Shown here piece by piece: positions 2,828-58,461 of a stretch of 64,000 nt of DNA (its first letter is position 1; every line of letters begins with the position of its first letter). The notes below the pieces were generated by a model that worked only from the letters and a program-made list of their open reading frames with translations, ran no database searches and was not told where the DNA came from. The position numbers were made by a program, and so were the translations under genes. The DNA comes from Minisyncoccota bacterium (GTDB lineage: Bacteria > Patescibacteriota > Minisyncoccia > Phycocordibacterales > UBA918), in NCBI GenBank assembly GCA_041389025.1, contig JAWKSP010000002.1, positions 184,079-248,078 on the forward strand, read 5' to 3'.

Positions 2828-3712
2828 TTACTCAAAAACCACGGCTTGACGAATAGATTCTCTAAGGGTAGACATATCTGACTTTAGATTGTTACTATCT
2901 AAAATTACATAACCAATTACTTTTTTCTCATTTCCAAATTCCTCCTCAAACAAAGACACGACCGTACGACCAGCCGCCTCAGTATAACCATGTTTTCCAC
3001 CCTGATAAGTTTTATCATAAACTGGGTTATTATTTATCCAGCCGGTATAACTACCGACATATTTTGACAACTTGGTAATATCTAAAATATTAGAGCTATT
3101 ACTATACATATACAATATCAGCAAAACCAAGTCAGAAGCAGTTGAAATATTGCCAGCAGAAAGACCAGAGGCATCAGAGAATTTTGTATCACTTAGCCCT
3201 ATTTCTTTTGTTAAATTATTCATGTTTTCAATAACCATTCCGTTAGTATCACGAATAAAAGCTGCCGCCACATCATTTGATGACTCAAGCAATAGCGGAA
3301 AAAGAAGTTCATGATATGAATAACTTTGTCCAACCTCAAGTTTTCCCGCTCTACCTTCTTCAGCTACGTCACTGTTTGTTATTACCAAATCTTTATCGAG
3401 AGGCCAATTCTTATCAATAGCTAAAGCCGTTACAAGCTTAGTGATAGACGCTATTGGTAACTGAGTATTAGGATTTTTAGAAAAAATTATCTCACCCGAC
3501 TCCACATCAAAAATAGCAAAAGATTGGGCTGGTATTTCTATGTTAATATTTTTATTAAATGAAATTGGAGTCTCCCTAACTTTTTCTATTTCTATAACTG
3601 ACACTTCTGAAGCCAAACTTTTAAAAGCAAATAAAGCCAAAAGCAATACCGCCATAATTGCGGTATTGCTCAAAACTGACCGTAAAAGAAAATTTGAATC
3701 TCTTTTGGTCAT
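2828..3712 (-). CDS. D-alanyl-D-alanine carboxypeptidase (PBP5/6-like, S11 family)
   Basis: SxxK motif ASITKL, SxN motif ESSND; N-terminal signal/TM. Confidence 0.7.
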   Translation of the reverse strand: MTKRDSNFLLRSVLSNTAIMAVLLLALFAFKSLASEVSVIEIEKVRETPISFNKNINIEIPAQSFAIFDVESGEIIFSKNPNTQLPIASITKLVTALAIDKNWPLDKDLVITNSDVAEEGRAGKLEVGQSYSYHELLFPLLLESSNDVAAAFIRDTNGMVIENMNNLTKEIGLSDTKFSDASGLSAGNISTASDLVLLILYMYSNSSNILDITKLSKYVGSYTGWINNNPVYDKTYQGGKHGYTEAAGRTVVSLFEEEFGNEKKVIGYVILDSNNLKSDMSTLRESIRQAVVFE

Positions 3713-24840: not shown

Positions 24841-25728
24841 CTAATACCCGTATATAGAAAAATGAGATGCAGAAATCCAATTACCCAATACTTTTATATC
24901 ATCACCAGAGGCACCTTGTGATATCAAACTATCTTTCTCCGCTTGGGTTTTAACCTCATAGACTGGCCTTAATCCATTTTTTTTAGCGGCATCTATAACC
25001 CTAACAACTTCTGCCCCAGTCATACCACCCGCCTTACTATAATCAATACAAGTTCCGTTATTGTGACATTCGCTTTTATGCGCACGGGTTGGTGGCATAC
25101 CTTCTGTAACTCTTGCTCCAGACACACCTGCATCTATATGAAACTGGTTTATTTTATCAACGATACTAGGTGATACACTACAACTACTTGCATTCTTACA
25201 CGGAGCAGCAAGAGGAACACAAGTCCCTCCAGTACAACCAGATGGCAACGGTCCTGTTGGTGGTGGAGTGTTAGGATCGGACATGGGATCCCCTAGCCAT
25301 TTAGTTGGCGCAGTCTGCACCTGACACTGTACATCTGTCCACGGTCCATAACCTTGAATTTCCCCACTACCACCCTTTAATAAACCTCGCATAATAGTAT
25401 CTACCAAAAGCCAAGCCGCCATCACAATAACCAGTCCGATAATAGCATTGGTAAACTTACTCTTAGCATCCTCTAAAGCTGAAGTGTTACCACCAGAAGT
25501 TATCAATTTAAAGCCAGCAACCGTCATCATAACCGCAAAAATCATAAAAATAATTCCAAACAACCATTTTATGACAATATTGGCTGTATCTACTAAATTA
25601 CACGCACTACAATCGACTCCATCACAAGTGAGGAAGCCTTGAGCATTTACAGACTCAGCCGGCACTATAAGCACTAAAAGAAATACTAATAATGGTGGAG
25701 AGATAAGTGTTAAAGTTTTTTTAATCAT
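24841..25728 (-). CDS. pilin-like two-TM module (TrbC/VirB2 or T4SS-pilin style) fused to a Cys-rich C-terminal domain with an M15-like HxxGxCxD segment
   Basis: Signal peptide, Cys cluster CDGVDCSAC, TM1, loop GGNTSALEDAKSKF, TM2 NAIIGLVIVMAAWLLV; C-terminal HNNGTCID. Confidence 0.4.
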   Translation of the reverse strand: MIKKTLTLISPPLLVFLLVLIVPAESVNAQGFLTCDGVDCSACNLVDTANIVIKWLFGIIFMIFAVMMTVAGFKLITSGGNTSALEDAKSKFTNAIIGLVIVMAAWLLVDTIMRGLLKGGSGEIQGYGPWTDVQCQVQTAPTKWLGDPMSDPNTPPPTGPLPSGCTGGTCVPLAAPCKNASSCSVSPSIVDKINQFHIDAGVSGARVTEGMPPTRAHKSECHNNGTCIDYSKAGGMTGAEVVRVIDAAKKNGLRPVYEVKTQAEKDSLISQGASGDDIKVLGNWISASHFSIYGY

Positions 25729-25749
25729 AAAATTATTACTTAAATTATA

Positions 25750-26766
25750 CTACAAAGCATCCGCCACACTAGTAATGTTTTTTACATAATTTCTAGTCTC
25801 TACATAACCAGTATTTGGCACACAACTAGAATTTTCAGTCTCATAACATCCTGGACTATCCCAAGCACATTCCCACCGCATCAGTCCCGGACAATCATTG
25901 CTAGGTAAAATTGCAGCTGGTCCACCATTATATTCAGCCAAAGCTCGACTGGTAGCGTTATCATAAGCTCGATGTTTTTCATACAATTGATCATAATACT
26001 TAGCACCTAAAGCTAAGCTATAATTATTATCATCTCGTAATTTTGTCGCTACTTCCTCATCGCTTAAACCTTTTAAACTAGGGTCCAGTCCTCGAGCAGT
26101 ACTAACCAACATCTGACTACAACCATAGGCTGTACCATATGGTGTATCTGGCCCTACTTTATTGGTACAGTTACCAGATTCTTGCATAATTAGTGACTTA
26201 AATATTTTTTGTTGGTACGGATCGTTTATACCATTTGCGACAGCTGTGTTTTGTATATCCGTTTGAATACTACCGGAAGAATTTATTGCATTTACTGCTG
26301 AATTAATTTCATTGGTATTAAATATATGATTATTACTACCAGTAGCTGTGGTCCTAGCAAATTGCTGAGCTGTTGGCTGAGCCACACACTGAATATCATC
26401 CCAGAAGTCATAAGTAGGACTGTTTACCATTACTTTCAAACCAAAATCCACCACAAACCAAACGGCTAAAAAAATAATGTAGCCAACAATTGCATTAATA
26501 AGATATTTTTTGATTTGCGTTCTGGCTCCAGCCTGACCAACCGAAGAAGCTAGCCATAAACCAAGCACCATTATCATGATAATTATAAGAACCCCCAAGA
26601 TAATACCTAGCCAATCAAAAATGTTTTGTATTAATTTAACAACGTGACAAGTTTGACAAGGATCTGCTCCATCTCCTCCACACGGCACCAATCCGGCAGC
26701 GCTCACCAAAATAGGAGAAACCATCAAGGTAAATAAAGTATAAACTTTCCACATATCCAAAATCAT
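25750..26766 (-). CDS. pilin-like two-TM module fused to a lytic transglycosylase (SLT) domain (VirB1-like activity)
   Basis: N-terminus parallels 24841..25728 (VPCGGDGADPCQTC, two TMs, INAIVGYIIFLAVWFV); C-terminal MQESGN...GCSQML...AEYNGG SLT motifs. Confidence 0.5.
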   Translation of the reverse strand: MILDMWKVYTLFTLMVSPILVSAAGLVPCGGDGADPCQTCHVVKLIQNIFDWLGIILGVLIIIMIMVLGLWLASSVGQAGARTQIKKYLINAIVGYIIFLAVWFVVDFGLKVMVNSPTYDFWDDIQCVAQPTAQQFARTTATGSNNHIFNTNEINSAVNAINSSGSIQTDIQNTAVANGINDPYQQKIFKSLIMQESGNCTNKVGPDTPYGTAYGCSQMLVSTARGLDPSLKGLSDEEVATKLRDDNNYSLALGAKYYDQLYEKHRAYDNATSRALAEYNGGPAAILPSNDCPGLMRWECAWDSPGCYETENSSCVPNTGYVETRNYVKNITSVADAL

Positions 26767-27188: not shown

Positions 27189-27638
27189 ATGTCAGTTACA
27201 CAACCAATGTTTGTAATTTCTACAAAAAATTTGTTTAACAAATTTTTTAAAATTCTAACGAAGTTAATTGAAATAAAACCAGAAGTAAACCTAAACGAAC
27301 TAAGCGAGGCGCAAATTATTACTCATTTAGCCAGCAACCACAGACGAGCACGTATTATAGTCAGTGAATTAATCAAGAAAAACAATTCGATCAATACAGA
27401 CTATACAGACTGTTTTAGTAGCGGCGTAAAGTACGCCAATGTACTAAACACGCTTGGTATACGTAGTAAAGATATAGTATTACTGTACTATATCTACAAA
27501 AAAGATATCTTGAGCTTGAGACAAGCTTTGGTGGCTAACCATTTAGAAAATGAACAATGTTGCCATCATGATAAAATGAATGTAAAAGTACCCTTGTCTA
27601 TGGCTTTAGAAAAACTAAAAAAAAGACAGAGGAAATGA
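27189..27638 (+). CDS. hypothetical small cytoplasmic protein
   Basis: Own consensus promoter, strong RBS and terminator hairpin (27650..27680). Confidence 0.45.
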   Translation: MSVTQPMFVISTKNLFNKFFKILTKLIEIKPEVNLNELSEAQIITHLASNHRRARIIVSELIKKNNSINTDYTDCFSSGVKYANVLNTLGIRSKDIVLLYYIYKKDILSLRQALVANHLENEQCCHHDKMNVKVPLSMALEKLKKRQRK

Positions 27639-27743
27639 GACACCTAAACAACCCACCAATGGTGGGTTTAATTTTTTCTTATTTACAAACTAGCTTTTTA
27701 ATAGTACTTTAAAAATTAGACTTATTGTACGGAGGACATATAA

Positions 27744-28256
27744 ATGAACTTTTTTCCGCTTGTAGGCATAGCCCTTATGGCTACACTTTGTTTTTCTTTT
27801 GGATTTTATTTGGTCGGATTAATTTTTCTTTTGTTATTAATATTTTACATAGCTGTATTTCTCTACTTAGGTAATATATTGGTTTTGTTTATAAATATGC
27901 CGACTTCTTGGCAAAATATGTCCGAGACTATGGAAATAGCTAGAAAAAGTGGCTACAAAGTAGATGTAACCCAAATATATTCGGTATCTAGAATCTATTT
28001 AGCTATAAATATACTAGTAAACTGGCTTTTTGAAATTTCTGTTAACAAAAAAGTAGTAGCTGATTTTGAAAAAACATTTGTGAAAAAAGTAGTCGAAACT
28101 GAAGAAGTTCAAGACAAAGCTATTCATTATTTTACTGAAGTGAATAAAAAAAGACCTGATATTTTACTATACATAGTCAATGCTATAAAAGTCAGAAAAC
28201 GCTTTGGGTTGATGTCTAAAAATAAAGAAAGAGAAAGAAAAGAAGTTTTGAATTAA
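27744..28256 (+). CDS. hypothetical membrane protein
   Basis: RBS GGAGGA; two N-terminal TMs; bidirectional terminator hairpin at 28285..28313. Confidence 0.4.
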   Translation: MNFFPLVGIALMATLCFSFGFYLVGLIFLLLLIFYIAVFLYLGNILVLFINMPTSWQNMSETMEIARKSGYKVDVTQIYSVSRIYLAINILVNWLFEISVNKKVVADFEKTFVKKVVETEEVQDKAIHYFTEVNKKRPDILLYIVNAIKVRKRFGLMSKNKERERKEVLN

Positions 28257-28336
28257 AATAGCTTATTTTTTAAGCTAAAAAATAATCACCGAAACAAAAA
28301 ACGTTTCGGTGATTTTGTTAATTCATTTTACTTAAG

Positions 28337-29362
28337 TTAGTCAAAACTGTCGTCACTATTAAAATAGTCATCACCAAAAGACTCATTATCCGACACATTC
28401 TCACTCCTTCCATACTGATCGTCATCATATCCTATACGATCACTCTCTTCATGACCATCTTCATTGGTAGACTGATCATCAACTAAAGAGCCAGAAGCTG
28501 GATCAAAATCTTCCGGTAATTGAGCGTGCTGTTCAGCTAAATCTGGTGTTAAATCAAACACACTATTAACTGGTTCCACAAAACCAGCAACATCCTCACT
28601 AACAGCATTTTGCCAAGTATCGTCACCAACACCAGTCACCGCCATAGATGCATTTCTATCAACCTCATCAAACTCCAGCTGATCTACACTAGTGGCGTCA
28701 GCGTCGTTTGAACTAAGCAAAAGATAACCAAGACCGAGCAAAGCAATAGTACCAAGAGCGTAAGCTAATGGATTATTGGAACTATCCTTTCCAAACTTAC
28801 TCCATGGTTGCGCAGAATTAGCTTGGTTCGGTATTTCTTTTTCACCTTGTTTATAATTTAAAGCATGTTGATTTGGAATACCAATATCTTCCGCCTGTTT
28901 CCAAGAGTCAATATTTGCACCAAGATAAATAACTATCCAACCATCTTTACGTTTTTGCTCAATCAGCTTTTTAACATCAGCTAACTGGTACTTTTTTGAA
29001 CTATTTTCCAAACCATCAGTCTGAATAACTAACATATTCTTATTAGTACCACCACTTTCTACTATTTTAATAATATCAACAATGGCATCAAAAAGTGGCG
29101 TTAAAGCTCGTGGTTTATATTCTTGAACCTCTACCGGTCTGATGTCACCCATCAGTCCTTCTCGTAAGTTATCAAAACCCATAGAATCAAACTGTCTTAA
29201 GATAAAATTAGCCTTTCCACCTTTCGAATCAGCTTGCATCTTTTTTAAGAATAGGTTTATCGCTTCCACTACCTGTTTTTCGGTACCATACATTGAACCG
29301 GTACGATCCAACAAGTGGGCAACAGTAATATCACTACTAAAAACTAAGGGATGTATGGTCAT
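28337..29362 (-). CDS. von Willebrand factor A domain protein with a C-terminal TM and an acidic tail
   Basis: MIDAS-like LLDRTGSM near the N-terminus; vWA fold spacing; TM ALGTIALLGLGYLLL; D/E-rich C-terminus. Confidence 0.5.
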   Translation of the reverse strand: MTIHPLVFSSDITVAHLLDRTGSMYGTEKQVVEAINLFLKKMQADSKGGKANFILRQFDSMGFDNLREGLMGDIRPVEVQEYKPRALTPLFDAIVDIIKIVESGGTNKNMLVIQTDGLENSSKKYQLADVKKLIEQKRKDGWIVIYLGANIDSWKQAEDIGIPNQHALNYKQGEKEIPNQANSAQPWSKFGKDSSNNPLAYALGTIALLGLGYLLLSSNDADATSVDQLEFDEVDRNASMAVTGVGDDTWQNAVSEDVAGFVEPVNSVFDLTPDLAEQHAQLPEDFDPASGSLVDDQSTNEDGHEESDRIGYDDDQYGRSENVSDNESFGDDYFNSDDSFD

Positions 29363-29517
29363 ATGACCTCCTTTTTTAAATTTAAAAGAGCTTACTTAAG
29401 TTGATTTTTACTATCAACTTTAATTTTTTATAACATAGAAAAATTAAAGTGTAAATATATTTAAACTTCATTCAACCGACTATTGTCTAAATTGTTTTGT
29501 TGATATTAATTAAATTA

Positions 29518-30978
29518 TTAAAAAGTTAATTCATTTACATTCACCACCGCCTCTATTAAATCCCCTGTCTGACGTAAGTTATCGTATGACAAGTAAGTTC
29601 CCTCCTCCTCAACAATAGCGTTACTCTTAGACTGTTCTAATTTATTTAGTGATACAGCAAAAATCTCAACTGTGGTGTCATTAATCCAATTTACTCGTAT
29701 CTCAGCATCACCGTATCCATCTTTATAAAAATAAGTAAAATTATTTGGATCTATTTCATGTATTTTTACAGCTTTCCCTAAAACAAGGTCATAAATAAAT
29801 AATTCATATTTATTATTTTTAGGAAAAACAACTATATATCTATTATCAGAACTTAAAGTCTTGCGTGGGTAAGACTGCATAACAAAACCAGTATCCGTTA
29901 GGACATTTTCTTCAGTAGTCCTGTCAAAAACAACAAGTGAGGCGTAACCCTGACCTTCGTAAGGTGAGGACGTTAGATAAATTCTTTCTTTAGTGCTTGA
30001 TGAAGCTAGTAATTTTATAGAAGAGAAATTGAATAAATCATAATCAGAAGTGTCTAGTGTTTTTAATAATTCATATTTTCCTGACACGCTATTCTTATAG
30101 CATAAGTCCGTACTTTTTTTATAATAATCATCCTCATAAAAATACAGGAAGTAACTTACATCTTTGTCTTTATATTTTTCCGTATATCCTTCTTTTTCAC
30201 AGTAAAAGTTCATTACCCTTTCTTCATCCAATCCCTCACTCCAAGACTCTTTTTTCACATATTTTTCACCATCAAAAATATATTCTGTATATATCCATTC
30301 TTGAGCCGATTTAGCACTGGAAGTAATACTTTTATTTTCTATATCAAAAGTTGGGTTTACTAAGTTAGATAAATCAGGTTCAAAAGTAGAAAAATCATTA
30401 CTTAACTCTAAGAGACCGTTGTCAGGATTATAAAGATAAAAACGATAAAACCTATTTACTCCACCATATCCAACATTAGACAAGACCCCCAAATCCAAAT
30501 AATGGTCGTAATTTATATCGCGATTTGTAATCAAAAAAGATTCTTTATTGGCGATACCAGCTAATCCAGCAAAATTTACATCTATGGTTTGCACTACTTC
30601 GTACTTTTCATTCAGTACCTCGAGAACACTCTGATCATAGCGAATTTTATATTTACCCATATCAACCGTAGTAGTAGCTACAAGACCCTTATTTAAGACA
30701 AATTCATCCCCAATCTCTACTTTTTCCTCAGGTCCCGACGCTGTATCTTCCTCAATCATGACCCCCTCTACTTCTTCCACCACCTCCTCCAAAGCAATCT
30801 TATATCCCACATAAGCACCCACAAATGGTAGTAATATAAATAACACAAGCGCTAAATACTTTGACAACGGCGTGACTTTAGTCAACCTGTCGGTTGAGTT
30901 TTGTTGTTCTAAAGTTTCTGTTGAAACTTTAGTTTGAGTTTCTTCATCTATTTTATTTGTGTTTGTCTCTGGTGACAT
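29518..30978 (-). CDS. large hypothetical membrane-anchored extracytoplasmic protein
   Basis: N-terminal KVTPLSKYLALVLFILLPFVGAYVGYKI anchor shared with 12131..12976; Tyr-rich beta-rich ectodomain. Confidence 0.4.
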   Translation of the reverse strand: MSPETNTNKIDEETQTKVSTETLEQQNSTDRLTKVTPLSKYLALVLFILLPFVGAYVGYKIALEEVVEEVEGVMIEEDTASGPEEKVEIGDEFVLNKGLVATTTVDMGKYKIRYDQSVLEVLNEKYEVVQTIDVNFAGLAGIANKESFLITNRDINYDHYLDLGVLSNVGYGGVNRFYRFYLYNPDNGLLELSNDFSTFEPDLSNLVNPTFDIENKSITSSAKSAQEWIYTEYIFDGEKYVKKESWSEGLDEERVMNFYCEKEGYTEKYKDKDVSYFLYFYEDDYYKKSTDLCYKNSVSGKYELLKTLDTSDYDLFNFSSIKLLASSSTKERIYLTSSPYEGQGYASLVVFDRTTEENVLTDTGFVMQSYPRKTLSSDNRYIVVFPKNNKYELFIYDLVLGKAVKIHEIDPNNFTYFYKDGYGDAEIRVNWINDTTVEIFAVSLNKLEQSKSNAIVEEEGTYLSYDNLRQTGDLIEAVVNVNELTF

Positions 30979-31008
30979 ATTTATATACTAGAGTTAATAA
31001 ACTAATGA

Positions 31009-32001
31009 TTAACTATTTTTACTCATACGATCAAACAATCTAAAGTGATGTCCAGCACCAAACATAATTATTATAATAATGGCAGCAAAGTGTGGTAAGT
31101 GTCCGGTAAGTTCAATTGGCCCTAAAATAAATAGTGGTATGGTAAAAATAATTGCTGTTACAACCGCCACTAGACGAGTAGTGATACCAAGTAAAAGTAA
31201 TAAACCTAACAAAGCTTCAGTAGTTCCAGCCAACAAAACAAAAAGGTAATCAGATACCCCAAAACTAGCTAGAAAGTTCCAGTCATGTTGGGCTAAGAAA
31301 TTTAAACCCAGCTCTGGTCTAAAAATCTTTTCAGTAAAACCAAGAGTTACCAAAGTAATACCAGTACCGACCCGTAAAGTCGGTAACGCATAAGGTCTAA
31401 ATTTATAGACAAAACCTTTGATAGACCTTATAGACAAAACACTAAAGTAATCATTACCCATGATGATAATAAAGGAAATGATAGATAAGACCCAAATATT
31501 TTCAACCAGAGCTTCTAAACCGGCGTAAGGTAAAGCCAAAAACCAAACAATGGCCAACAATACTGCTCCCAAACGAGCAAAAATTCCTAAAAGAAACATA
31601 AGGCCAATCACAAACTGAACCATAATAAGTAACATTGGTACACCAGAATGAACGGTAAGATTGGGTGAAAATAAATATTCATGGGTACCAGCAATCATAA
31701 AGAAAGCCCCCGCCACCATAGTGAAAGTAGCTGCTACACGATTGAAAGCATTGACTGTTCTAGGACGTAAAAAATCTAACCGAAATAATTTCTTTTTTTC
31801 CAATACTGTACCAACAAAAACCACAAAAGTGGCTAATAAAAAACAGCCGGCTAAGTATAATGAAGTAGGTTCTTGTGTGACTAATGGCGGAATTTCTCCT
31901 TCTGCAAACCAACGAGTATGTGCCGAGGCAAGTAAAGGAATAAAAAATAAGGCTATTAAAAAAACACTTCTCTGAGAAAAAGTTTTAATCATGCCTAACA
32001 T
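31009..32001 (-). CDS. hypothetical polytopic membrane protein (DoxX-like?)
   Basis: About eight hydrophobic helices; no catalytic motif recognised. Confidence 0.3.
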   Translation of the reverse strand: MLGMIKTFSQRSVFLIALFFIPLLASAHTRWFAEGEIPPLVTQEPTSLYLAGCFLLATFVVFVGTVLEKKKLFRLDFLRPRTVNAFNRVAATFTMVAGAFFMIAGTHEYLFSPNLTVHSGVPMLLIMVQFVIGLMFLLGIFARLGAVLLAIVWFLALPYAGLEALVENIWVLSIISFIIIMGNDYFSVLSIRSIKGFVYKFRPYALPTLRVGTGITLVTLGFTEKIFRPELGLNFLAQHDWNFLASFGVSDYLFVLLAGTTEALLGLLLLLGITTRLVAVVTAIIFTIPLFILGPIELTGHLPHFAAIIIIIMFGAGHHFRLFDRMSKNS

Positions 32002-32119: not shown

Positions 32120-34818
32120 TTAAGCGGTTACCGGTTCTTTTGCTTTTACAACACGTTTTGTGACAGGTTTTTTTCTTCCCCCTTTACTCTTTACGTCAAA
32201 ATCAATTTCACCCTTACGCATACAGACTTTTACCACTCCTTTTTGTAACATACCCTCACCCACCATCATATTAGCCACCGGTGTTAGTATCTTACTTTGG
32301 ATCAAGCGTTTTAATGGTCTCGCACCAAACTTTGGATCATAACCTTCTTTAGCCAAGTACTCCAGCACATCATCGGTTAAAGTCATAATTATTTCTTTAT
32401 TTTCTAGACGACGTTGTACTTCATCAATCTGAATAGAAACAATACTGCGAATAGTTTCTGGTGACAAAATATCAAAGACAATTATCTCATCAAGTCGGTT
32501 TAAGAACTCTGGTCGGAAGTAGTTCTTGAGACTATCCATTACTTTATCCTTGGCCTGCACATATTGAGTAGCATCATCTTTTTCAGCCGCAAAACCAAAA
32601 CTAGACATTCTATCTATATGCTCAGCACCAATATTAGAGGTCATAATAATAACTGTATTGCGGAAATTAACCTTTCTACCTTTAGCATCAGTCAAATGAC
32701 CAGAGTCAAGGACCTGCAATAGAATATTAAATACTTCAGGATGAGCTTTTCTATTTCATCCAACAAGATAACTGAGTAAGGACGATGTCGTACTCTCTCG
32801 GTAATTGATCCTCCTTCTTCGTGTCCCACATAACCAGGTGGCGAACCAATAATCTTAGACACAGCATGTTTTTCCATGAACTCTGACATATCAATCCGAA
32901 GTAAAGCATCAGAATCATTAAACATAAATTCTGCTAAAGCCTTAGATAGTTCAGTTTTACCAACTCCAGTTGGACCAAGAAACAGAAATGAACCGATCGG
33001 ACGATTTGGATCAGCAATTCCCGCTCGTGAACGCTTGATAGCGTCAGCCACCAGTTTAATAGCATGATCTTGACCAACTACTTTATTTTTTAGAACATCC
33101 TCCATTCTAGCTAGTTTACGAGCTTCCGCTTCAAGCATGCGAGACACCGGTATACCAGTCCAACGCGAGACTACAGAAGCAATATCTTCTTCAGTCACCT
33201 CTTCTTTTAGTAAACGACGACTGCGTTGCAGTTTTTTAAGACGTTTCATTTTATCATCAAGTGCTTTTTGTACTTTAGGAATTGAATCATAACGAATTTC
33301 CGCTGCCTGAGTTAAATCAGCCATTGCTTCAGCATTTTCTGCTTCTACTCTAAGTTCTTCTAATTCCTTCTTTAATTTACTAATTTCTCCAAGAGTATTT
33401 TTTTCATTACTCCATTTAGTTTCTAAAGCTGAAGTGGTTTCTTTTAGTTCACCGATTTCTCGTTCGATTTCTTTTATTCTGTCTTTTATTTTCTTCTTAT
33501 TTTCAGACACTTCTAACTCCTTTCGCAAAGCTTCACGTTCGATTTCTAAACGTCGCACCTGTCTGTCAGACACTACCAACTCTTCCGGTTTATTTTCTAG
33601 TGAAATACGTAAAGCAGAAGCCGCTTCATCAATCAGATCCACAGCTTTATCTGGTAAAAAACGATCAGTAATGTAACGAGAAGAAAGATTTACTGCTGAT
33701 ACAATCGCATCATCAGTAATTCGTACTCCATGAAAAAGCTCGTATTTTTCAGACAGACCACGAAGAATAGCGATAGTGTCTTCCGGTGACGGCTCATTTA
33801 CAAACACTGGTTGAAAACGTCGAGTCAAGGCCGGATCTCGTTCAATGTGTTTTTGATACTCTTTTAAAGTAGTAGCTCCGATTACTCTTATTTCACCACG
33901 AGCCAAAGCTGGCTTTAGCATATTAGAAGCATCCATCGATCCTTCGGCTTGTCCTGCACCAACTATAGTATGCAATTCATCGATAAATAAAATTATTCCT
34001 CCATCAGAAGCTTCTACTTCTTTCATCACTGCTTTTAAACGCTCCTCGAACTCACCACGAAACTTAGTACCAGCCACTAAAAGACCTAAATCAAGAGATA
34101 GAATCTCTTTTTCTCGAACTGACTCGGGTACATAACCAAGCACTATTTGCTGGGCCAAACCCTCAGCTATTGCAGTCTTTCCCACTCCGGCCTCTCCTAT
34201 CAACACTGGGTTATTCTTAGTACGACGAGACAGTATCTGAATCACCCGTTGTATTTCCACATCACGACCAATTACCGGATCTAGTTTATTTTCTTGTGCC
34301 AATTTAGTAAGATTTCTAGTGTATTTAGTTAGAGCACGATATTTTTTAGGAGCCTGAACGTCAGTAACATTATGTTCACGCAACTCCTTAACTGTACGTA
34401 TGACTTTCTCTCGATCAATTCCCGAACGCTGTAATAACTCAACCGCCGGCCCCGGATACTCAAGAACAGCTACAAACAAATGCTCTACTCCAACATAAGA
34501 ATCACCCATTTGCTCAGCTAACTTACCAGAAAACTCTAGCGCTTTAGCTAGATCAGGCGTCAAATAAAGTTGGTAAGTTGGTGAAATCGTAGTTTGCATC
34601 TCACTCACCTCTAATGCTTCGAGCATAATATCAGTAAAAGCAATCACGTCGACATCCATTCGGTCAAGAATTGAGATCACCATACTTTCATCCTGCATGG
34701 CCAATGCGGTCAAAAGATGAATTGGATTAACATGATTTTGTCCTCGTTCGATAGCTAGTTCATGCGCTTTTCTGATAGCTTCTTTAGCTTTTGATGTAAA
34801 ATTTTGAAAATTAGGCAT
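32120..34818 (-). pseudogene. clpB: ClpB chaperone (AAA+ disaggregase) interrupted by a 1-nt frameshift near 32745
   Basis: N-domain, NBD1, coiled-coil M-domain and NBD2 are all recognisable. Reading LLDEIEK then jumps frame; adding one g to gaaaag-ctcatcc restores [16 protein letters not shown]. Confidence 0.7.
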
Positions 34819-35789: not shown

Positions 35790-36359
35790 CTACTTAGTAA
35801 TAATTTTTACATTTTCAGATAAATTTTTGGTAATAAAATCTAAATCTTGCTTTGAATAGTTGGTACCGATTAAGTTTAATACCTTTAAGTTACTTAAATT
35901 ACTAAGTTCATACGGTAAACCAGTAATAGGATTGTTAGACAAATCTAAGACCTCAAGCTTTGATAACTGGCCAATTTCGGCTGGTACTCCGGTAAAATTA
36001 TTATCACTTAGATCAAGAGTTTGTAGATTTTGTAAATGTCTAATCTCAGCCGGCAATGACCCGCTTAGTTTATTGTGAGATAAATCCAAAACAGTGACTT
36101 CTTTTCTAGAAAAAATACCGCTTGGTTCTTTAGTTAGATTTTGGTAGCTCAAATCAATAACTTGATCATCATTTGCTTCTGATGATTTATCCAAGAGACT
36201 ATCTGGTACTGCTTGATTAACCATATTGTTTACTGTTTTTTCTGTATTTAATCTTTCTTCCAAGACTTTTTTACCAGCTGTAGTCTCGGTTTCATTAGAA
36301 ATATACATAAATCCAAAAACAATTATGACAATCGCGAGCAATAGACTAATTAAACCCAT
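35790..36359 (-). CDS. leucine-rich repeat protein with an N-terminal TM anchor
   Basis: At least five LxxLxLxxNxL repeats (LDLSHNKLSGSLP, LDLSDNNFTGVP, LDLSNNPITGLP...). Confidence 0.6.
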   Translation of the reverse strand: MGLISLLLAIVIIVFGFMYISNETETTAGKKVLEERLNTEKTVNNMVNQAVPDSLLDKSSEANDDQVIDLSYQNLTKEPSGIFSRKEVTVLDLSHNKLSGSLPAEIRHLQNLQTLDLSDNNFTGVPAEIGQLSKLEVLDLSNNPITGLPYELSNLSNLKVLNLIGTNYSKQDLDFITKNLSENVKIITK

Positions 36360-50354: not shown

Positions 50355-51304
50355 TTATCTAAGGACATTTGTCACTTTTTCATATAGTACTTCATTAGGA
50401 CTCTTTCCATCAAGGGAACAATGTTCCAGGTTGTTATAGTATTCATTCCAAAGGCGAATTTTCTTTTTCAGATTGGTAACAGAAGTAAATCTGTTACGTT
50501 GATAAAACTTCTCCTCATCTTCTCTATGAGAGCGTTCAACGGTACCGTTCTGAGCCGGTTTCCCTGGATCAATCAGGTAATGAGTAATCTTGTGTTTAAT
50601 ACACCACTCATCTAAAGCATGAATAGTCTTTATGGTTAAGTCTGAACGTTTATTGGTGCCAAGGTAATAATTGGTAAAGGTACTATGATTATCGGTTTTG
50701 ATAGCTTGTATGGTATTGGGAAACTTCTGTTTAACTATCTCCATCATTCTAATAGCATGGTGAGTAGTTTGTTCATCAAATATTTCTAAATGTCTCCATC
50801 TACTAGCGGTATCTATGACTGTATATTGATAGTATTTAAGGCCTTGTATAGCCCCTGGAACATACTTCACGTCCATCTCTAGGAGTGTTCACCTGGTTGT
50901 CTCACTGCTTTTATATATTTATACTTTATCTTCTTAACTCGGTACTTACGTACTAATCCTGCATTTTTAAGTATTTTAGATACGGTACTATGTGGTACTA
51001 ACAACCCTTGTTTCTTCAATCTCCAATGCAGTTTCTTGGAACAAAGACCGGTTTGTTTACGGAGGGTGATAACTTCTTCTTTGATACGTATTGGAGTTTC
51101 GTTAGGTTGTGTCTTTGGTTCCGTACTTTTAGGTATCAATCCATCCAGGCCACGTTCTTTATATGCTTTCTTCCACCTTTTTAAACTACGTTCACTATGT
51201 GGACATACTTTAGCTACGTCTACCAACCTCATTTCTTTATTAATAATTGGTTTGATCCACCTCCACCTTTCTTCTTGTATAGTTTTTGCCATAGATATAC
51301 ACAT
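50355..51304 (-). pseudogene. IS481-family transposase split by a -1 frameshift between the HTH and the rve/DDE domains
   Basis: ORF A ...RQPGEHS* then ORF B MDVKYVPG...; in the -1 frame the join reads QPGE-LLEMDVKYVPG (IS481-like PGELxxIDVKKL); KTDNHSTF and PAQNGTVERSHR DDE-region motifs; no obvious slippery heptamer. Confidence 0.55.
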
Positions 51305-52377: not shown

Positions 52378-52758
52378 TTAAGGTCCGGTATTTGGATTAG
52401 AATTATTTGTATTATTAGTGTTATTATTTACTGGATTAAACACGGTATTACACTGTGCCGCCGTCGGATCTTTGGTACAGTCTAAAGTTTGTCCAAGACC
52501 AAAGGTATTTACAGCGATACTGAGTATCGCATAAGCTGAAGCCATAATAACCAAACCGATAATACCGTAAGTCATGTGTTTTTTTCCTTTATCACGCGCC
52601 TGCTCACTGGCACCATTAAAAATAAAGATCGCTGCCCCATAAATAAAAACCAGAAAAGCAATACCACTCAAAAGAGCTATTAAAGGAAATAGGATTACAT
52701 CATTTACCTTTTCGACAAATTTCCAAGCTTCGTTAGCAGCATCTTGCTGGGGTGACAT
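52378..52758 (-). CDS. two-TM pilin-like small protein (paralog family, T4SS-pilin/TrbC-like)
   Basis: TM1, loop NGASEQARDKGKK, TM2 HMTYGIIGLVIMASAYAIL; N/T-rich C-terminus. Confidence 0.4.
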   Translation of the reverse strand: MSPQQDAANEAWKFVEKVNDVILFPLIALLSGIAFLVFIYGAAIFIFNGASEQARDKGKKHMTYGIIGLVIMASAYAILSIAVNTFGLGQTLDCTKDPTAAQCNTVFNPVNNNTNNTNNSNPNTGP

Positions 52759-52851
52759 GCGTATAATTATATCACCTTGTTACGGCCAGTAAATAAATAA
52801 TACACAAAACAAAAAAGCCCAAACGGGCTTTTTATAGTAAAGTGCTAAAGA

Positions 52852-53307
52852 TTAAATAGGATTAACCTTCGGCTTCAAAGTCTGATCAAAAACTTCATCA
52901 GCACCTGTACTTGAAGCAAGTAGATTAATAACACCCCAGAATATAATGATTAAAACAAAACCTAGAATTGCGTAAATCATCAAACTCTTTCCTTTTTCTT
53001 TTGACTCTTCGTTGGCTCCACCAGCTATAAAGTATTGGAACATTCCCCAAACGAATACGAGAAAACCAATGCCAACAATAAATGGTATTAATACAGTGTT
53101 CGCAAAAACAAGTATGGTTTGAAGCAAATCGCCAAACCTACCTCCTCCTCCGGCTCCTACACCTCCTGGATCAGCTAATTGTGCAGAAGCATTTGCTATC
53201 GGCAAAAAAAACAAGACTAGACTAGTGAGAAGAAAATTAAAACGTTGCATAACTTTTTGTAAATTTATTAATAAATAATTAATCGTGTACCTTTTAAAAT
53301 TATACAT
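52852..53307 (-). CDS. two-TM pilin-like small protein (paralog)
   Basis: Signal peptide, TM1, loop AGGANEESKEKGKS, TM2 LMIYAILGFVLIIIFWGVINLL. Confidence 0.4.
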   Translation of the reverse strand: MYNFKRYTINYLLINLQKVMQRFNFLLTSLVLFFLPIANASAQLADPGGVGAGGGGRFGDLLQTILVFANTVLIPFIVGIGFLVFVWGMFQYFIAGGANEESKEKGKSLMIYAILGFVLIIIFWGVINLLASSTGADEVFDQTLKPKVNPI

Positions 53308-53358
53308 AAAATATTATTTTTTGGTATATCAGATTTGAAATATTGTGAATAATTTTAC

Positions 53359-53613
53359 TTAACCAAAAATTGATTTTCTAAGCATATTTATAATACCCCA
53401 TACAGAAATAATCAATACGACGACCAACACAGCCACTAAAGCCAGTCTTTTTCCTTCCTCTCGTTTTTTTTCGTCTCCAGCATTTATCACCCAGGCGTCA
53501 AACACCTTCCAAACCAAAAAAAGGAACACAAAAGATAAGAGCGTTGGTATTAAAATATTTATCAAGCCGATAAAGAGATTAACTAGTTCTTTAAATGTGG
53601 TAGGAGTATTCAT
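53359..53613 (-). CDS. two-TM pilin-like small protein (paralog)
   Basis: TM1, loop NAGDEKKREEGKR, TM2 LALVAVLVVVLIISVWGIIN. Confidence 0.4.
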   Translation of the reverse strand: MNTPTTFKELVNLFIGLINILIPTLLSFVFLFLVWKVFDAWVINAGDEKKREEGKRLALVAVLVVVLIISVWGIINMLRKSIFG

Positions 53614-53618
53614 AAAAA

Positions 53619-54023
53619 TTACGGAGAGGGTGGAGGGGTAAAAGCACTAACTAGGTTCTTAATAATCTCACCAATCGCATACGCTCCCAAAATAAGTACT
53701 CCACCAATAATAGCGTAAGTGAGGGCTTTTTTAGCAGTAGTTAGCTTAGTCTCGTCACCTTGAGCGGTCACATAGAGAAAGCCGGCATAGATAATGAAAA
53801 AAATAACTATCGGGGTGGCTATCACCACTACAATACCTAATATACCTTCCAATAAGTCTTCTATACTATTTACTGATAGCGGGTTATTTAGAGTTACATT
53901 AGTACTTGGAGGAGGAGCTGAATACGTCATTCTCGGTAGAAACAAAAATAACCATAATAAAAAACCATGGTTACAGAATTTTCGAACATCTTCTCCTTTT
54001 TCTTTAATAATATTCATATCCAA
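53619..54023 (-). CDS. two-TM pilin-like small protein (paralog)
   Basis: TM1, loop TAQGDETKLTTAKKA, TM2 LTYAIIGGVLILGAYAIGEII; Pro-rich C-terminus. Confidence 0.4.
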   Translation of the reverse strand: MDMNIIKEKGEDVRKFCNHGFLLWLFLFLPRMTYSAPPPSTNVTLNNPLSVNSIEDLLEGILGIVVVIATPIVIFFIIYAGFLYVTAQGDETKLTTAKKALTYAIIGGVLILGAYAIGEIIKNLVSAFTPPPSP

Positions 54024-54028
54024 AATAA

Positions 54029-55345
54029 TTAGTACACCGCTTGTAACCGACCTACCACATCATTAGCCGTTCTTGTGGTATCTTGTCTGTTGGCACTAAT
54101 ATCTTCTAATGCCCTACTAAGTATATCATCCGTCTGTTCCAAATCTGGATTCAACCATGCTCTAGTGTTGTAAGCTGATAAATAGATGATTCTTCCATAA
54201 ACGTCATTACTTCCAAGGGACAAAGAACTTCTATGGACCGGAGCCATGTTATATCCATCAGCTAAAACCTTAGCTCTATTCTGGCTCCCGATCTCACTCA
54301 TCACTTGATATGCTCCTTGTTTATTATTAGCACTTTTCGGTATAAAAAAGCCATAAAAATTTCCATATACGCGTTTGTTGGTGGAATTTTCACCCTGTGG
54401 AACTTCAGCTATATCGAAACTCAAATTGGGATTCTTTTCTTCAAGTCCACGCGCTTCACTGCCGTATCCGAAATAAAAAGCTAAATCTTCTCTCAAGAAT
54501 ACGTCTTGATCTAATCCTAAAGTTCGATTCCAGCTATATAGAGAGTTGTTTACATTACTAAAACTGGTATAGAAATCTAACGTTTTAGTAAGTGGAATCT
54601 TAACGCTATTTGATTCATTTAACTTAACCATATACTCATTGTTTTTACTTTCCGAAACCATTGGGCTACCGGCTTGAAGAAGTAGGGTAGATAGTATTGG
54701 AAAAGCATTTTTTACATTTACATATTCTCCCATCGCCAAAGTCGATAGTTGGATTCTTCGATTGAAGTCCCTAATAGTTATCAACGGCGCCATTGAACTT
54801 ACTAACTCTTCCCAATTTTTTGGTGGCGTTAAAAAACCATTATCAGACAAAATATCCCTATTCCAGTACATAACCAACGGATCAACCATAACTGGAAAAG
54901 CATACACTCCGTCTTGCAGAGCAAAGATGGAAGCACCATCTATATACAAGTTTCTAAAATCACGCTCTGGAAAAGAGTCATATGATATTGGTTGTAATCG
55001 ACTACGGTGCTTAACCAACCTTTCGTGAGACATAAAAAGTAAGTCAGGCGGAGTTTGGTCAGCCAATGCGTCGACAAGTACTTTGTCAAAATCTTCCGGC
55101 GGTATATAACGGTACGATACTGTCCTAAATGACTCATTATCTTCACGTAGGTCAATCATCATACTTGAAAATACATCGTCAGACAAAGTTCCCCATATAG
55201 ATACACCGCCCTTTAAATCAAGACATGTCCCATCTTCTTCGCAAGACGGACTCTCATATGTATTCAACAAAACCAATGCGGCAATCATTAAAACTCCAAA
55301 CGTCACTACCAACCCTAATTCAAACGGTCTTAGTTTTAACATCAT
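54029..55345 (-). CDS. extracellular solute-binding protein-like (SBP family 1-like) lipoprotein or anchored protein
   Basis: N-terminal TM; VYAFPVMVDPLVMYWNRDIL resembles the SBP_bac_1 hinge region; no adjacent permease or ATPase. Confidence 0.45.
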   Translation of the reverse strand: MMLKLRPFELGLVVTFGVLMIAALVLLNTYESPSCEEDGTCLDLKGGVSIWGTLSDDVFSSMMIDLREDNESFRTVSYRYIPPEDFDKVLVDALADQTPPDLLFMSHERLVKHRSRLQPISYDSFPERDFRNLYIDGASIFALQDGVYAFPVMVDPLVMYWNRDILSDNGFLTPPKNWEELVSSMAPLITIRDFNRRIQLSTLAMGEYVNVKNAFPILSTLLLQAGSPMVSESKNNEYMVKLNESNSVKIPLTKTLDFYTSFSNVNNSLYSWNRTLGLDQDVFLREDLAFYFGYGSEARGLEEKNPNLSFDIAEVPQGENSTNKRVYGNFYGFFIPKSANNKQGAYQVMSEIGSQNRAKVLADGYNMAPVHRSSLSLGSNDVYGRIIYLSAYNTRAWLNPDLEQTDDILSRALEDISANRQDTTRTANDVVGRLQAVY

Positions 55346-55891
55346 ATTTTTCTTACACTAAATCCATAATGATGGTCACCGGCTGGGAATTCGCGCTCCA
55401 TCACCATACCACCAGCTTCAAATAATGCGATAGCGGTATCTTTTTGTATTACGTCTGCCGGCTGTGGACCTAAACCTCCAAAAGATTCAGACCAATCAAT
55501 GACATGTATTACTCCACCATGTCTAATAACGCGACTTATTTCTCTTATAGCCGCTTCTTTATTTTCAAACTGAAAAAGTATTTAATAAAATACCCGTATC
55601 CAAACCTCATCATCAAGCGGAATTCCTGATTCTTCAAGATCACACCACAGAACTTACATTAGGCAAGCTATTGATACGAATAAATTCACTCAGTTTCTCC
55701 ACTAAAACTTTTTGTATTTCACAAGCATACACATGGCCAGTACTACCGGTCATTTCTGATAATACCTTTAGAAAAAAACCACTACCAGCTCCAAAATCTG
55801 CCACTTGGTCACCTTCTTTAATAAAAAAGTGGCTGGCAACGACATCAGGCACAACAAACCGTCCAGGTAAGATGTTATTCATACCCTTCAT
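55346..55891 (-). pseudogene. class I SAM methyltransferase broken into at least two frames
   Basis: The N-terminal ORF (55640..55891) carries motif I VADFGAGSGFF and stops. A different frame downstream encodes FQFENKEAAIREISRVIRHGGVIHVIDW... (the post-II LKPGG-like region). Confidence 0.45.
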
Positions 55892-55989: not shown

Positions 55990-58461
55990 TTATTCTGATA
56001 CAAACACCACACTAGCAATTGAGTCTCCGTCACGCATCTTCATTACTCTTACTCCTTGAGTTTGACGACCTAAAGTAGGAACGTCTTTTAATGGTAGTTT
56101 AATTACTTGCCCTTTCTTACTCATTATTACCAACTCACCCTCCAATCTTTCTTCTCCTCTTAAGATGATTCCTGCTACTATTGTTCCTGTTTTATTGGTT
56201 AATTTAACTGTCTTAATACCTGAACCACCACGCTTCTGTACTTTATATTCTTTTGCTGGAGTCGATTTACCATATCCATGTTCTGTTACTATAAGTATCT
56301 CAGTATTTTTTTCACCTTTCTTTATCACATCAGCTGATACTACCTTATCGCCTTTTCCAAATTTCATGGCTGTTACTCCAGCGGCGGTTCTACCCATTTC
56401 TCTAACATCACTTTCTTTAAAGCGAATTGCTTGCCCATTTAAAGTAACCAAAGACATTTCATCTCCTTTCCCAACAAATTTAGCTGCGATTAGTTGATCA
56501 TCATCCTTTAAGGTAATAGCAATTAAGCCACTGCGACGCACATCTTTAAAGGCAGCTGCGTCACTTTTCTTAGCTACACCGTTCTTAGTCACCATCATTA
56601 AAGCCCAGTCACCAGCCCATTCTTCTTTACGCACAGCCAAGACCGAGGTGATATGTTCATCTTGAGTTAATGACAAGAAGTTCATGATTGACTTACCTTT
56701 AGTAGCTCGCCGACCTTCCGGAATCTCATACATTTTACTTTGATAAACCTTTCCTTTATCAGTAAAGAACAGAAGGTCGCTATGAGCAGAAGTGGTGAGT
56801 AAGGTAGTTACAATATCTTCCTCTTTGGTGTTCAAATCAACTACTCCAACTCCACCTCGTTTCTGGGTACGGTATTCACTCGGATTAGTTCGTTTAACAT
56901 AACCGCCCTGTGTAAGTACTAATACACTTTCCTCATCTGGGACCAAATCCTCCTGCGACATCTGTTTTACTCCACCCTTTACTATCTTAGTTCTACGATC
57001 ATCACCATACTTATCAGCAATTTCTAGTAAATCATCCTTAACTATCTTCATCATCTTAGCTTTACTTTTCAAAATTGCCTCCAACTCTTTAATCAACTTC
57101 TGAATTGCCTTTAATTCATCTTCAATTTTCTTACGTTCCAGTCCAGCTAACTTCTGCAAACGCATATCAAGAATTGCTTGGGCTTGAATTGCTGAAAATT
57201 TAAATTCCTTCATCAAAGCAGCGTGGGCTGTTGGTACGTCTTTAGCGGCACGTATCAGCTTGATAATCTTATCAATATGATCAAGAGCTTTCTTAAGACC
57301 AAGTAAAATATGTTCACGATCTTGTGCTTTACCAAGATCATAAGCAGTTCGACGTCTTATCACCTCAGCTCGATGCTTAACATATTCTTGCAAAATAGCC
57401 TTTAATGATAGAGTCTGCGGGACTCCGTCCACCAACGCCACCATATTGTAATGGAAAGTATCTTCCAGTTGAGTATGCTTGTATAGTTTATTTAAAACTG
57501 TCTGCGGTTGAGCACCAGATTTTAAATCAATCACCACTCGAATATCTGGAGGTAGACTCATCACGCATATCACGAATTCCTCAATCTTCTTGTCACGTAC
57601 TAGATCAGCGATTTTTACCTGCAAATCAGCTTTATTGACACGAAAAGGTATAGAAGTAATTACAATCGAAAAAGCTCCACGTTTATCCTCCACAATCTGC
57701 TCACCTCTCACCGTCACACCACCTTTTCCGTTAGCATAAGCGTGAGCGATATCTTTTTGGTTAAAAGCAATTGCACCAGTTGGAAAATCTGGACCCTTGA
57801 TATGTTTTAGTAAATCATCGGTAGAAGCTTCTGGGTCGTCAATTAAATGCGCTACCGCACTTGCTACTTCACGTAAATTATGCGGTGGAATATTAGTAGC
57901 CATACCAACAGCAATTCCTAGAGAACCAAGCAAAAGCAAGTTTGGCACGGCCGCCGGTAAAACTACCGGTTCTTTCTTACTACCATCAAAGTTAGGTCGC
58001 CAATCGACAGTATCTTTTTCTAAATCACGAAGCATCTCCTCGGCCACTTTAGACATCTTGGCTTCCGTATAACGATATGCAGCTGCCGAGTCACCATCAA
58101 TTGAACCGAAGTTACCTTGTCCAATTACCAACGGATACCGAGTAGAAAAAATTTGCGCCAACTTAACCATCGCTTCATACACCGAAGAGTCACCGTGTGG
58201 GTGGAAGCTACCAAGTACGTCCCCTACCACAGTCGCTGATTTCTTAAATTTAGCACTAGAAGTAAGACCATTTAGACGCATCGAGTACAAAATACGTCTA
58301 TGTACTGGTTTTAAACCATCTCGCACATCAGGCAAAGCTCGCTGAGTAATAACGGACATCGCGTAATTCAAATACGCATTCTCCATTTCACTAGTGATAT
58401 TTTGTGTTACGATTCCGCGTTGCGGTTCCGGATTTTCTGGAGCTATATTCTTCTTCGGCAT
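55990..58461 (-). CDS. gyrA: DNA gyrase subunit A
   Basis: N-terminal [22 protein letters not shown], catalytic Tyr region, C-terminal beta-pinwheel repeats. Confidence 0.9.

Follow-up and report, generated by a model that had tools for sequence, protein, structure and literature searches.

In a 64,000-nucleotide stretch of a Minisyncoccota bacterium genome (Patescibacteriota; assembly GCA_041389025.1, contig JAWKSP010000002.1, positions 184,079 to 248,078), hereafter the window, two adjacent genes, here called B and A, each encode a signal peptide and a pilin-type helical hairpin followed by a domain resembling a peptidoglycan hydrolase. We consider it highly probable that their products form a pair of extracytoplasmic peptidoglycan hydrolases anchored by pilin hairpins. 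A more specific interpretation, in which A and B would together provide a VirB1-like function for opening the wall, split over two proteins that are held by VirB2-type modules and linked to a pilus or type IV secretion system (T4SS), appears to us about evenly balanced. The pilin-hydrolase architecture itself is a conserved, vertically inherited trait of Paceibacteria, represented by hundreds of sequence clusters.

Gene B (positions 25750..26766, minus strand; open reading frame [ORF] of 338 aa) encodes a fusion of a pilin module with a lytic transglycosylase domain, and gene A (24841..25728, minus strand; 295 aa) one of a pilin module with a LAS-type metallopeptidase fold. The layout of two minus-strand ORFs, each with a signal peptide, a Cys cluster and a hairpin, had been recognized in the first-pass annotation and is borne out here, as are the motifs quoted there, namely, CDGVDCSAC at residue 35, NAIIGLVIVMAAWLLV at 94 and HNNGTCID at 222 in A, and PCGGDGADPCQTC at 28, INAIVGYIIFLAVWFV at 90, MQESGN at 194, GCSQML at 215 and AEYNGG at 277 in B. 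The two genes are co-oriented, with B coming first, and form one operon, as indicated by the intergenic gap of only 21 bp and by the same gene order at related loci (L001-L004, L009-L011, L015, L057 and L078). Met5 (at 26754), the start in most B homologues and in the NCBI record, is the probable true start of B. A scan for promoters and terminators returned sites no more numerous than in shuffled sequence. Genes for tRNA-Tyr and tRNA-Trp are located on the flanks of the pair. Both protein sequences are identical to those from a Candidatus Paceibacterota metagenome-assembled genome at NCBI, where A is currently named 'pilin' and B 'hypothetical protein'. Full-length homologues fall into ~80 clusters for A and ~80 for B; the latter mostly carry precomputed PF18895+PF01464 annotation, and some database members have already been labelled automatically, e.g., as 'Type IV secretion system pilin/Transglycosylase SLT domain'. 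The architecture is present in databases and is not described in the literature that we searched, given that neither the papers on Patescibacterial T4SS nor full-text literature searches yielded a mention of pilin-hydrolase fusions.

The N-terminal modules of both proteins significantly match the Pfam family PF18895 (T4SS_pilin; gathering cut-off, 26.6 bits), with A scoring 44.9 bits over residues 45-112 (E = 1.3e-11) and B 39.4 bits over residues 43-108 (E = 6.4e-10). By contrast, PF04956 (TrbC/VirB2; cut-off, 27.9 bits) yields a sub-threshold score of 12.6 bits for A and no match for B, although 12 of the 106 long relatives described below pass this threshold. The pilin reading in the first-pass annotation is thereby supported, and the profile matches, the structural models and the numerous homologues place the observation far beyond chance. 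Among the NCBIfam models, the modules have only sub-threshold matches, to a pilin-like protein of Mycoplasma integrative and conjugative elements. Another weak NCBIfam match, to p028 of pLS20, was followed up and dropped, for the pLS20 paper includes no VirB2-like component and ascribes antitermination to gene 28.

Judging from the hydrophobic stretch and a VSA/A site, B would carry a signal peptide at residues 1-23 (...ILVSA/AG; 26698..26766, minus strand), and that of A would span residues 1-29 (...ESVNA/QG, with a VNA/Q site; 25642..25728, minus strand). Pairwise identity in this region is low among homologues (27.5% for B, as expected for a signal peptide, and 28% for A). The pilin modules follow at residues 24-130 of B (26377..26697, minus strand), with C29, C37 and C40, helix 1, a short loop, helix 2 and C127, and at residues 30-136 of A (25321..25641, minus strand), with C35, C40 and C43, helix 1, a loop containing K89, helix 2 and a GPWxxVxC135 motif. 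AlphaFold2 models, made with ~50 homologues per protein, have a signal-peptide helix followed by two long helices, at residues 42-76 and 82-116 in A (mean predicted local distance difference test score [pLDDT], 83.5) and at 39-74 and 79-114 in B (mean pLDDT, 87), with confidently modelled globular C-terminal domains in both (pLDDT >90). Fold comparison does not distinguish pilins from other helical hairpins, and the structural matches of the hairpin were given no weight. In A, the module is connected to the enzyme domain by a Pro-rich linker (residues 137-162; 25243..25320, minus strand) with 28.5% identity, variable length and pLDDT of 55-61, which in some homologues contains inserts of ~60 aa.

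Several features suggest that the pilin module is more than a loose hydrophobic anchor and is under strong constraint. Within the A family, the helices and the loop of the module are 51-59% identical, compared to 58.5% for the enzyme domain and ~28% for the signal peptide and linker, that is, the module is conserved as strongly as the enzyme domain and far above the flanking regions, as expected if it is under selection. Both C35/C40/C43/C135 of A and C29/C37/C40/C127 of B are invariant within their families (49 homologues in the case of B), and four cysteines, of which three precede helix 1 and the fourth follows helix 2, show at least 90% conservation across the 106 long fusions. In a comparison of eight modules, K89 was the sole invariant column. 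Furthermore, the A module has relatives among stand-alone pilins (132-181 aa), with which it has ~60% identity and the Cys motif in common. A word-indexed search with the pilin module alone returned seven matches, too few for a census of architectures. Given that a cleaved signal peptide forces the hairpin into an out-in-out topology, the C-terminal domains would be exposed outside the membrane, and the conserved cysteines that flank the hairpin point to a disulfide staple in place of the head-to-tail cyclization of TrbC/VirB2-type pilins.

The C-terminal domain of B (residues 166-338; 25753..26271, minus strand), which contains six Cys, is a family-1 lytic transglycosylase-type domain according to three concordant approaches. 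The Pfam match to SLT (PF01464) is marginal, at 22.4 bits compared to the cut-off of 21.3, but E196-S197, G215, Q218 and Y279-N280-G282, which correspond to the Glu-Ser, GxxQ and AYNxG motifs, are invariant in 49 sequences of the B family, and a Foldseek search with the modelled domain retrieved goose-type lysozyme and MltE, indicative of the SLT-type lysozyme-like fold. The SLT assignment in the first-pass annotation is thereby upheld. The profile and structure-prediction checks suggested there gave pilin and SLT matches above threshold, and neither of the outcomes named there as refuting was observed. B differs from the known family-1 enzymes, such as MltE, Slt70, MltC and MltF, in its N-terminal tether, in three probable additional disulfides, in its occurrence in a monoderm-type organism and in an SLT score that barely exceeds the threshold.

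The C-terminal domain of A (residues 163-295; 24844..25242, minus strand) consists of a four-Cys knot followed by what is modelled as the LAS (Hedgehog/DD-peptidase) fold, the nearest solved structures being Hedgehog ligands. Residues 137-295 do not match any Pfam, NCBIfam or PHROG model; in particular, no M15 family was retrieved in the Pfam search with A at E≤1, and a profile of the C-terminal region run against the PDB sequences detected no M15 or Hedgehog chain, only insignificant matches of the Cys knot to low-density lipoprotein (LDL) receptor-like sequences. The metal-ligand pattern is, however, recognizable: all four histidines of A are conserved, and the motifs CHxNGTC(I/V)D, which contains H222-x6-D229, and HFS, which contains H289, are invariant. 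E209 and E258 also are invariant in the A family, and R206, H217 and the four cysteines preceding the fold are conserved among ~50 homologues. An hhalign comparison with P0096, a paralogue in which the same pilin module precedes a canonical Peptidase_M15_3/HH_signal domain, placed H222 and D229 on its SQHxxGTAID motif (E = 0.0026, probability 11%). Another hhalign run aligned RVTEGMPPTRAHKSECHNNGTCID of A with a stretch of human Shh, with a score that is not significant alone. A would bind zinc and probably acts as a cutter of peptide stems or cross-links. Compared to the LAS superfamily at large (M15 enzymes VanX, VanY and LdcB; MepA; Hedgehog N-terminal domain), the A domain is not found by the M15 Pfam models, has an insertion of ~30 residues that separates the YEV strand from the last His, and adds the N-terminal four-Cys knot as well as two Cys flanking the first ligand.

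An exhaustive HMMER search delineated at least 519 cluster representatives of the A-domain family at E≤1e-3 (clusters at 50% identity). The pilin module is present upstream in 119 of the 136 new representatives, the remainder being mostly short fragments. Thus, the A-type LAS domain defines a sizeable family without a Pfam model that is nearly always coupled to a pilin module. Some A-type relatives (P0240, P0250, P0278 and P0333) are 500-650 aa long, with 180-390 extra residues before the hairpin, which in these proteins would have extracellular domains on both sides. The four-Cys segment of A (residues 163-186; 25171-25242; GCxGGxCxPLxxPCxNxxSC), with its weak, insignificant profile matches to LDL receptor class A repeats, may be a separate small disulfide knot.

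A scan of GTDB with one genome per species, complemented with our own hidden Markov models (HMMs), returned 79 loci. All but one of these are labelled as belonging to a Patescibacteria lineage or as 'uncultured bacterium', the exception being a 3-kb contig labelled Bacilli. A tandem of two long pilin-module proteins is present at most of these loci, and contigs of Nomurabacteria, Paceibacteria and Parcubacteria repeat the arrangement in which B and A are followed by miaA, in convergent orientation, and by parB, relA and topA. The next labelled gene is miaA in 60 of the 64 loci that contain miaA, and even a B homologue with 29% identity is still located between clpB and miaA. The first-pass annotation had regarded the architecture as non-standard; this is correct with respect to classical T4SS, but the fusions are by no means rare and are conserved across Paceibacteria.

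Of the 106 long pilin-module proteins, 105 match PF18895, and nearly all recognized C-terminal enzyme domains are peptidoglycan hydrolases: SLT_3 (19 proteins), SLT (18), Peptidase_M15_3 (7), VanY (6), NlpC/P60 (6), Peptidase_M15_4 (5) and Extensin-like_C (5), along with Amidase_5, Destabilase, C-type lysozyme and an RPF-like transglycosylase; our LAS HMM added ~20 more. Single-linkage BLAST clustering of the C-terminal regions merged nearly everything, probably because the cut-points retained the post-helix segment, and was dropped; instead, the pairs were typed by Pfam on a sample. The window shares the combination of SLT in the first gene and LAS in the second with at least eight other loci. 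In L007 and L019, the first gene carries SLT_3 (in L007 at 19.4 bits, below the 27-bit cut-off) and the second LAS, in L034 SLT_3 is followed by NlpC/P60, and in L042 SLT_3 (26.4 bits, just below the cut-off) by VanY. The order is inverted in L031, where VanY precedes SLT_3. The pairing of one glycosidase with one peptidase is therefore established wherever both partners were typed. For three loci, the second gene alone was typed (NlpC/P60 in L039, M15_3 in L040 and M15_4 in L045), and in L006, a pilin of 129 aa and, after it, a pilin-M15_3 fusion occupy the same site. In L007 (9508-9996) and L008 (3149-3721), an ORF of 162-190 aa that has no Pfam match and is absent in the window separates the two fusions; its product might function in immunity or assembly.

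With HMMs derived from the A and B modules, we also located related machinery that the first-pass annotation had overlooked, namely, an array of four small pilin genes (52378-54023) 26 kb away from the A/B pair. Three of the four pass the PF18895 cut-off and one passes TrbC/VirB2. Pilin 1 (53619..54023, minus strand; 134 aa) scores 36.7 bits against PF18895 and 29.1 bits against PF04956, besides matching the module HMMs; pilin 2 (53359..53613, minus strand; 84 aa) was recognized by the module HMM at E = 2e-5 and scores a sub-threshold 18.7 bits against PF18895; pilin 3 (52852..53307, minus strand; 151 aa) and pilin 4 (52378..52758, minus strand; 126 aa) score 33.5 and 33.1 bits, respectively, and match the module HMM as well. 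None of them has the four-Cys motif of A and B. Directly upstream of the array lies a gene for a solute-binding protein (SBP)-like product (54029..55345, minus strand; PF01547/PF13416), associated with the pilins by synteny only, and the order gyrA, SBP gene, pilin array recurs in six other Patescibacteria genomes (L005, L072, L074, L079, L085 and L087). One of these, the Giovannonibacteria locus L005, carries a B-type SLT fusion between the SBP gene and a three-gene small-pilin array, as the first gene of that array, which ties the fusions to the small-pilin arrays. In the window, the SBP gene, which encodes an SBP_bac_1 protein, and the array are preceded by gyrA (55990-58461) and a methyltransferase remnant (55640-55891). 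A split transposase gene (50355-51304, minus strand), consisting of a helix-turn-helix (HTH) ORF of 141 aa and an rve integrase-core ORF of 173 aa, is located near the array, and a similar HTH/rve gene is present in L001.

The PF18895 pilins are VirB2-like components of Patescibacterial T4SS that are related to the conjugation systems of monoderms, and their genes often cluster in arrays, with 2-11 divergent members each (PMC12102498). Ca. Southlakia epibionticum cannot grow as an epibiont without its T4SS and pilin array (PMC10633639, PMC12857230). A and B belong to the same family, PF18895, as the VirB2-like pilins of Southlakia and Nanosynbacter TM7x and have the same layout, in which a signal peptide precedes two hydrophobic helices connected by a short loop that contains a conserved Lys. 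However, compared to the described Patescibacterial pilins (~80-180 aa, often near virB4), they add an enzyme domain of 130-170 aa, and unlike the described arrays, they reside at a housekeeping locus that lacks virB4. A dedicated VirB1 is frequently missing near virB4 in Patescibacteria (PMC12102498, PMC10633639, PMC12857230). The survey of these systems handled VirB1 homologues separately, noted additional wall-related domains (M23 and LysM) and proposed that other glycosidases may take over the VirB1 role (PMC12102498). In known VirB1-type hydrolases, such as TraG of pIP501, PrgK of pCF10, CwlT of ICEBs1 and Tn916 Orf14/CTn1 Orf17, both activities reside in one polypeptide that is anchored only once, at the N-terminus, has a peptidase domain of the CHAP/NlpC-P60 or M23 type and is encoded inside the T4SS operon. 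In the A/B pair, by contrast, the two activities are distributed between two proteins, each with a pilin-hairpin anchor, the peptidase has the LAS fold, and the glycosidase and peptidase are combined at the level of an operon that lies outside any T4SS operon, flanked by tRNA genes, miaA, parB and clpB.

Under the more specific interpretation, A and B would be exported via cleavable Sec signal peptides and anchored as VirB2-type hairpins, with the N-terminus outside, helix 1 running inward, the Lys loop in the cytoplasm and helix 2 running outward. The Cys-rich enzyme domains, exposed on the outer side of the membrane and carried by a flexible Pro-rich linker, could then reach the peptidoglycan, where B would cut glycan strands and A the peptide stems or cross-links. 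The pair would supply a muramidase and a peptidase in the way that the VirB1-type hydrolases TraG, PrgK and CwlT do, albeit split over two polypeptides. The pilin modules might dock the enzymes among the VirB2-like pilins of a Patescibacterial pilus or T4SS-like apparatus, and the wall would thereby be opened at the site where the apparatus assembles. A specific interaction, rather than generic anchoring, is suggested by the constraint on the module, its stand-alone relatives and the L005 arrangement, and functional coupling to a pilus or T4SS would rest on module homology, not on gene neighbourhood, given that no secretion ATPase was found nearby among the large ORFs checked.

Several observations weigh against this interpretation. 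No VirB4, VirD4 or VirB6 candidate was detected among the ORFs of the 64-kb window, in agreement with the first-pass annotation as regards VirB4 and VirD4; the ORFs of at least 500 aa all encode TopA, RelA/SpoT, ParB, ClpB, IF-2, GyrA or a Band_7 protein. At the related loci that were checked, neither VirB4 nor VirD4 is encoded at a distance of up to 10 kb, and ten large unannotated ORFs sampled from 84 pilin-containing related loci included no T4SS ATPase and no VirB6; PrgI and TrsD genes were likewise absent from the window and from this sample. According to the literature, virB4 of Paceibacteria is mostly found near dnaA, and the A/B site is a vertically inherited chromosomal housekeeping site. 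The related assemblies have no entries in the supplement of PMC12102498 and, hence, no virB4 status from that study. As for A, the sequence around H289 is ISA(S/P)HFS and does not contain the HxH/ExxH motif that is catalytic in M15, so activity is not assured; the M15-like designation in the first-pass annotation holds for the fold and the metal-ligand motif, but not for this catalytic motif or for any M15 sequence model. The candidate bases E258 and E209 are invariant, yet displaced, and E258 appears to be the likeliest replacement for the missing catalytic residue.

The most serious alternative, which we nevertheless consider somewhat unlikely, is that A and B are housekeeping autolysins that remodel the cell's own wall, with a pilin-derived hairpin co-opted as a mere membrane anchor. 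The deeply conserved single-copy locus between clpB and miaA-parB-relA-topA, retained even for the 29%-identical homologue, fits this possibility, as do the lack of a secretion ATPase nearby and of any mobile-element or phage signal and the fact that a glycosidase and a peptidase belong to the normal autolysin repertoire. However, the anchor is as conserved as the catalytic domains and far more so than the signal peptide, with four near-invariant cysteines and the loop Lys maintained, and it has stand-alone pilin relatives of ~60% identity. Moreover, the swapping of enzymes at a fixed locus (SLT, SLT_3, VanY, M15_3/4, NlpC/P60 and LAS) is unusual for a housekeeping enzyme that acts on an unchanged own wall, and in L005 a pilin array starts with the fusion. 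The strongly constrained, genuine pilin-family module might instead be taken to indicate that the fusions co-polymerize with the small pilins as minor or tip subunits of a filament that breaches the host wall. An outward hairpin C-terminus on a long flexible linker, enzyme domains rich in Cys, as is often the case in extracellular proteins, the additional extracellular domain before the hairpin in some relatives and enzyme types that diversify from lineage to lineage, as could follow from differing host walls, all agree with such an enzyme-armed pilus. Assembled F-pili also tolerate small C-terminal extensions on F-pilin. Nevertheless, a globular domain of 130-170 residues would be sterically demanding for a VirB2-type helical lattice, and no assembly ATPase was found nearby, making this scenario improbable.

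A further possibility concerns A alone: its LAS fold could serve as a metal-stabilized module binding peptidoglycan stem peptides or a host surface ligand, with B being the only catalytic partner. The failure of the M15 HMMs, the Hedgehog ligands as the closest structures and the lack of HxH/ExxH in a sequence that resembles the Hedgehog pattern RVTEGW...H...HxxGxxVD are compatible with a non-enzymatic A, but 50 homologues show little or no variation in the H-x6-D...H triad, two more His, E209, E258 and R206. In addition, canonical VanY, M15_3, M15_4 or NlpC/P60 domains occupy the same position in other lineages, which speaks for selection of a peptidase activity there, and we regard the loss of catalysis in A as decidedly improbable. 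Finally, phage lysis genes can encode muralytic domains and two-helix membrane modules, B weakly matches an SLT-containing virion protein among the PHROGs (E = 2e-4), and tRNA genes flank the pair, as could be the case for a lysis cassette of a prophage or mobile element in which a holin-like protein is fused to an endolysin. Yet, A has no PHROG match, the locus contains no phage structural or integrase genes, the chromosomal position is the same across many species-level genomes, and a cleavable signal peptide with a pilin-family HMM match is unlike a holin; synteny and PHROGs thus rule out a prophage lysis cassette, and the broader possibility of a mobile-element origin is scarcely tenable.

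Patescibacteria represent a large part of bacterial diversity, the members that have been studied mostly live attached to other cells, and a T4SS-like apparatus with VirB2-like pilins is essential in the one genetically tractable species. The covalent coupling of the pilin module to wall-cutting enzymes in one large class of Patescibacteria provides a handle on the relationship between this pilin family and the envelope, and on how ultra-small epibionts open their own wall or that of the host. The LAS-type family without a model, close to the Hedgehog ligands, is relevant to the evolution of the Hedgehog/DD-peptidase fold. Should the enzyme-armed filament prove true, enzyme swapping at the fixed locus would track the chemistry of the host wall; if the proteins are ordinary anchored autolysins, the result would still usefully correct their annotation as 'pilin' and 'hypothetical protein'.

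The A/B pair is bordered on one side by topA, relA/spoT, parB and miaA, and on the other by lineage-specific ORFs followed by clpB, methyltransferase genes, iscS and infB. The ORF block between the pair and clpB (27189-32001) has no counterpart in related loci and includes a gene for a DoxX-domain membrane protein; the ORFs at 27189-29362 had no tblastn match in related loci, so no conserved accessory genes were identified there. One of these ORFs (28337-29362) encodes a 341-aa protein with a strong match to phrog_7371 (E = 2.5e-36), a phage family of unknown function. The clpB gene (32120-34818, minus strand) is represented by two overlapping ORFs of 708 and 199 aa, compared to a single ~900-aa gene in relatives, which an assembly error, a frameshift or pseudogenization could explain. 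The genome also encodes a Peptidase_S11 D-Ala-D-Ala carboxypeptidase (2828-3712, minus strand) and thus possesses, in addition to the fusions, at least one conventional enzyme of peptidoglycan processing. Leucine-rich-repeat proteins are uncommon in small bacterial genomes; a gene for one of 189 aa (35790-36359, minus strand) is located between two methyltransferase genes and is found in the same place in L001.

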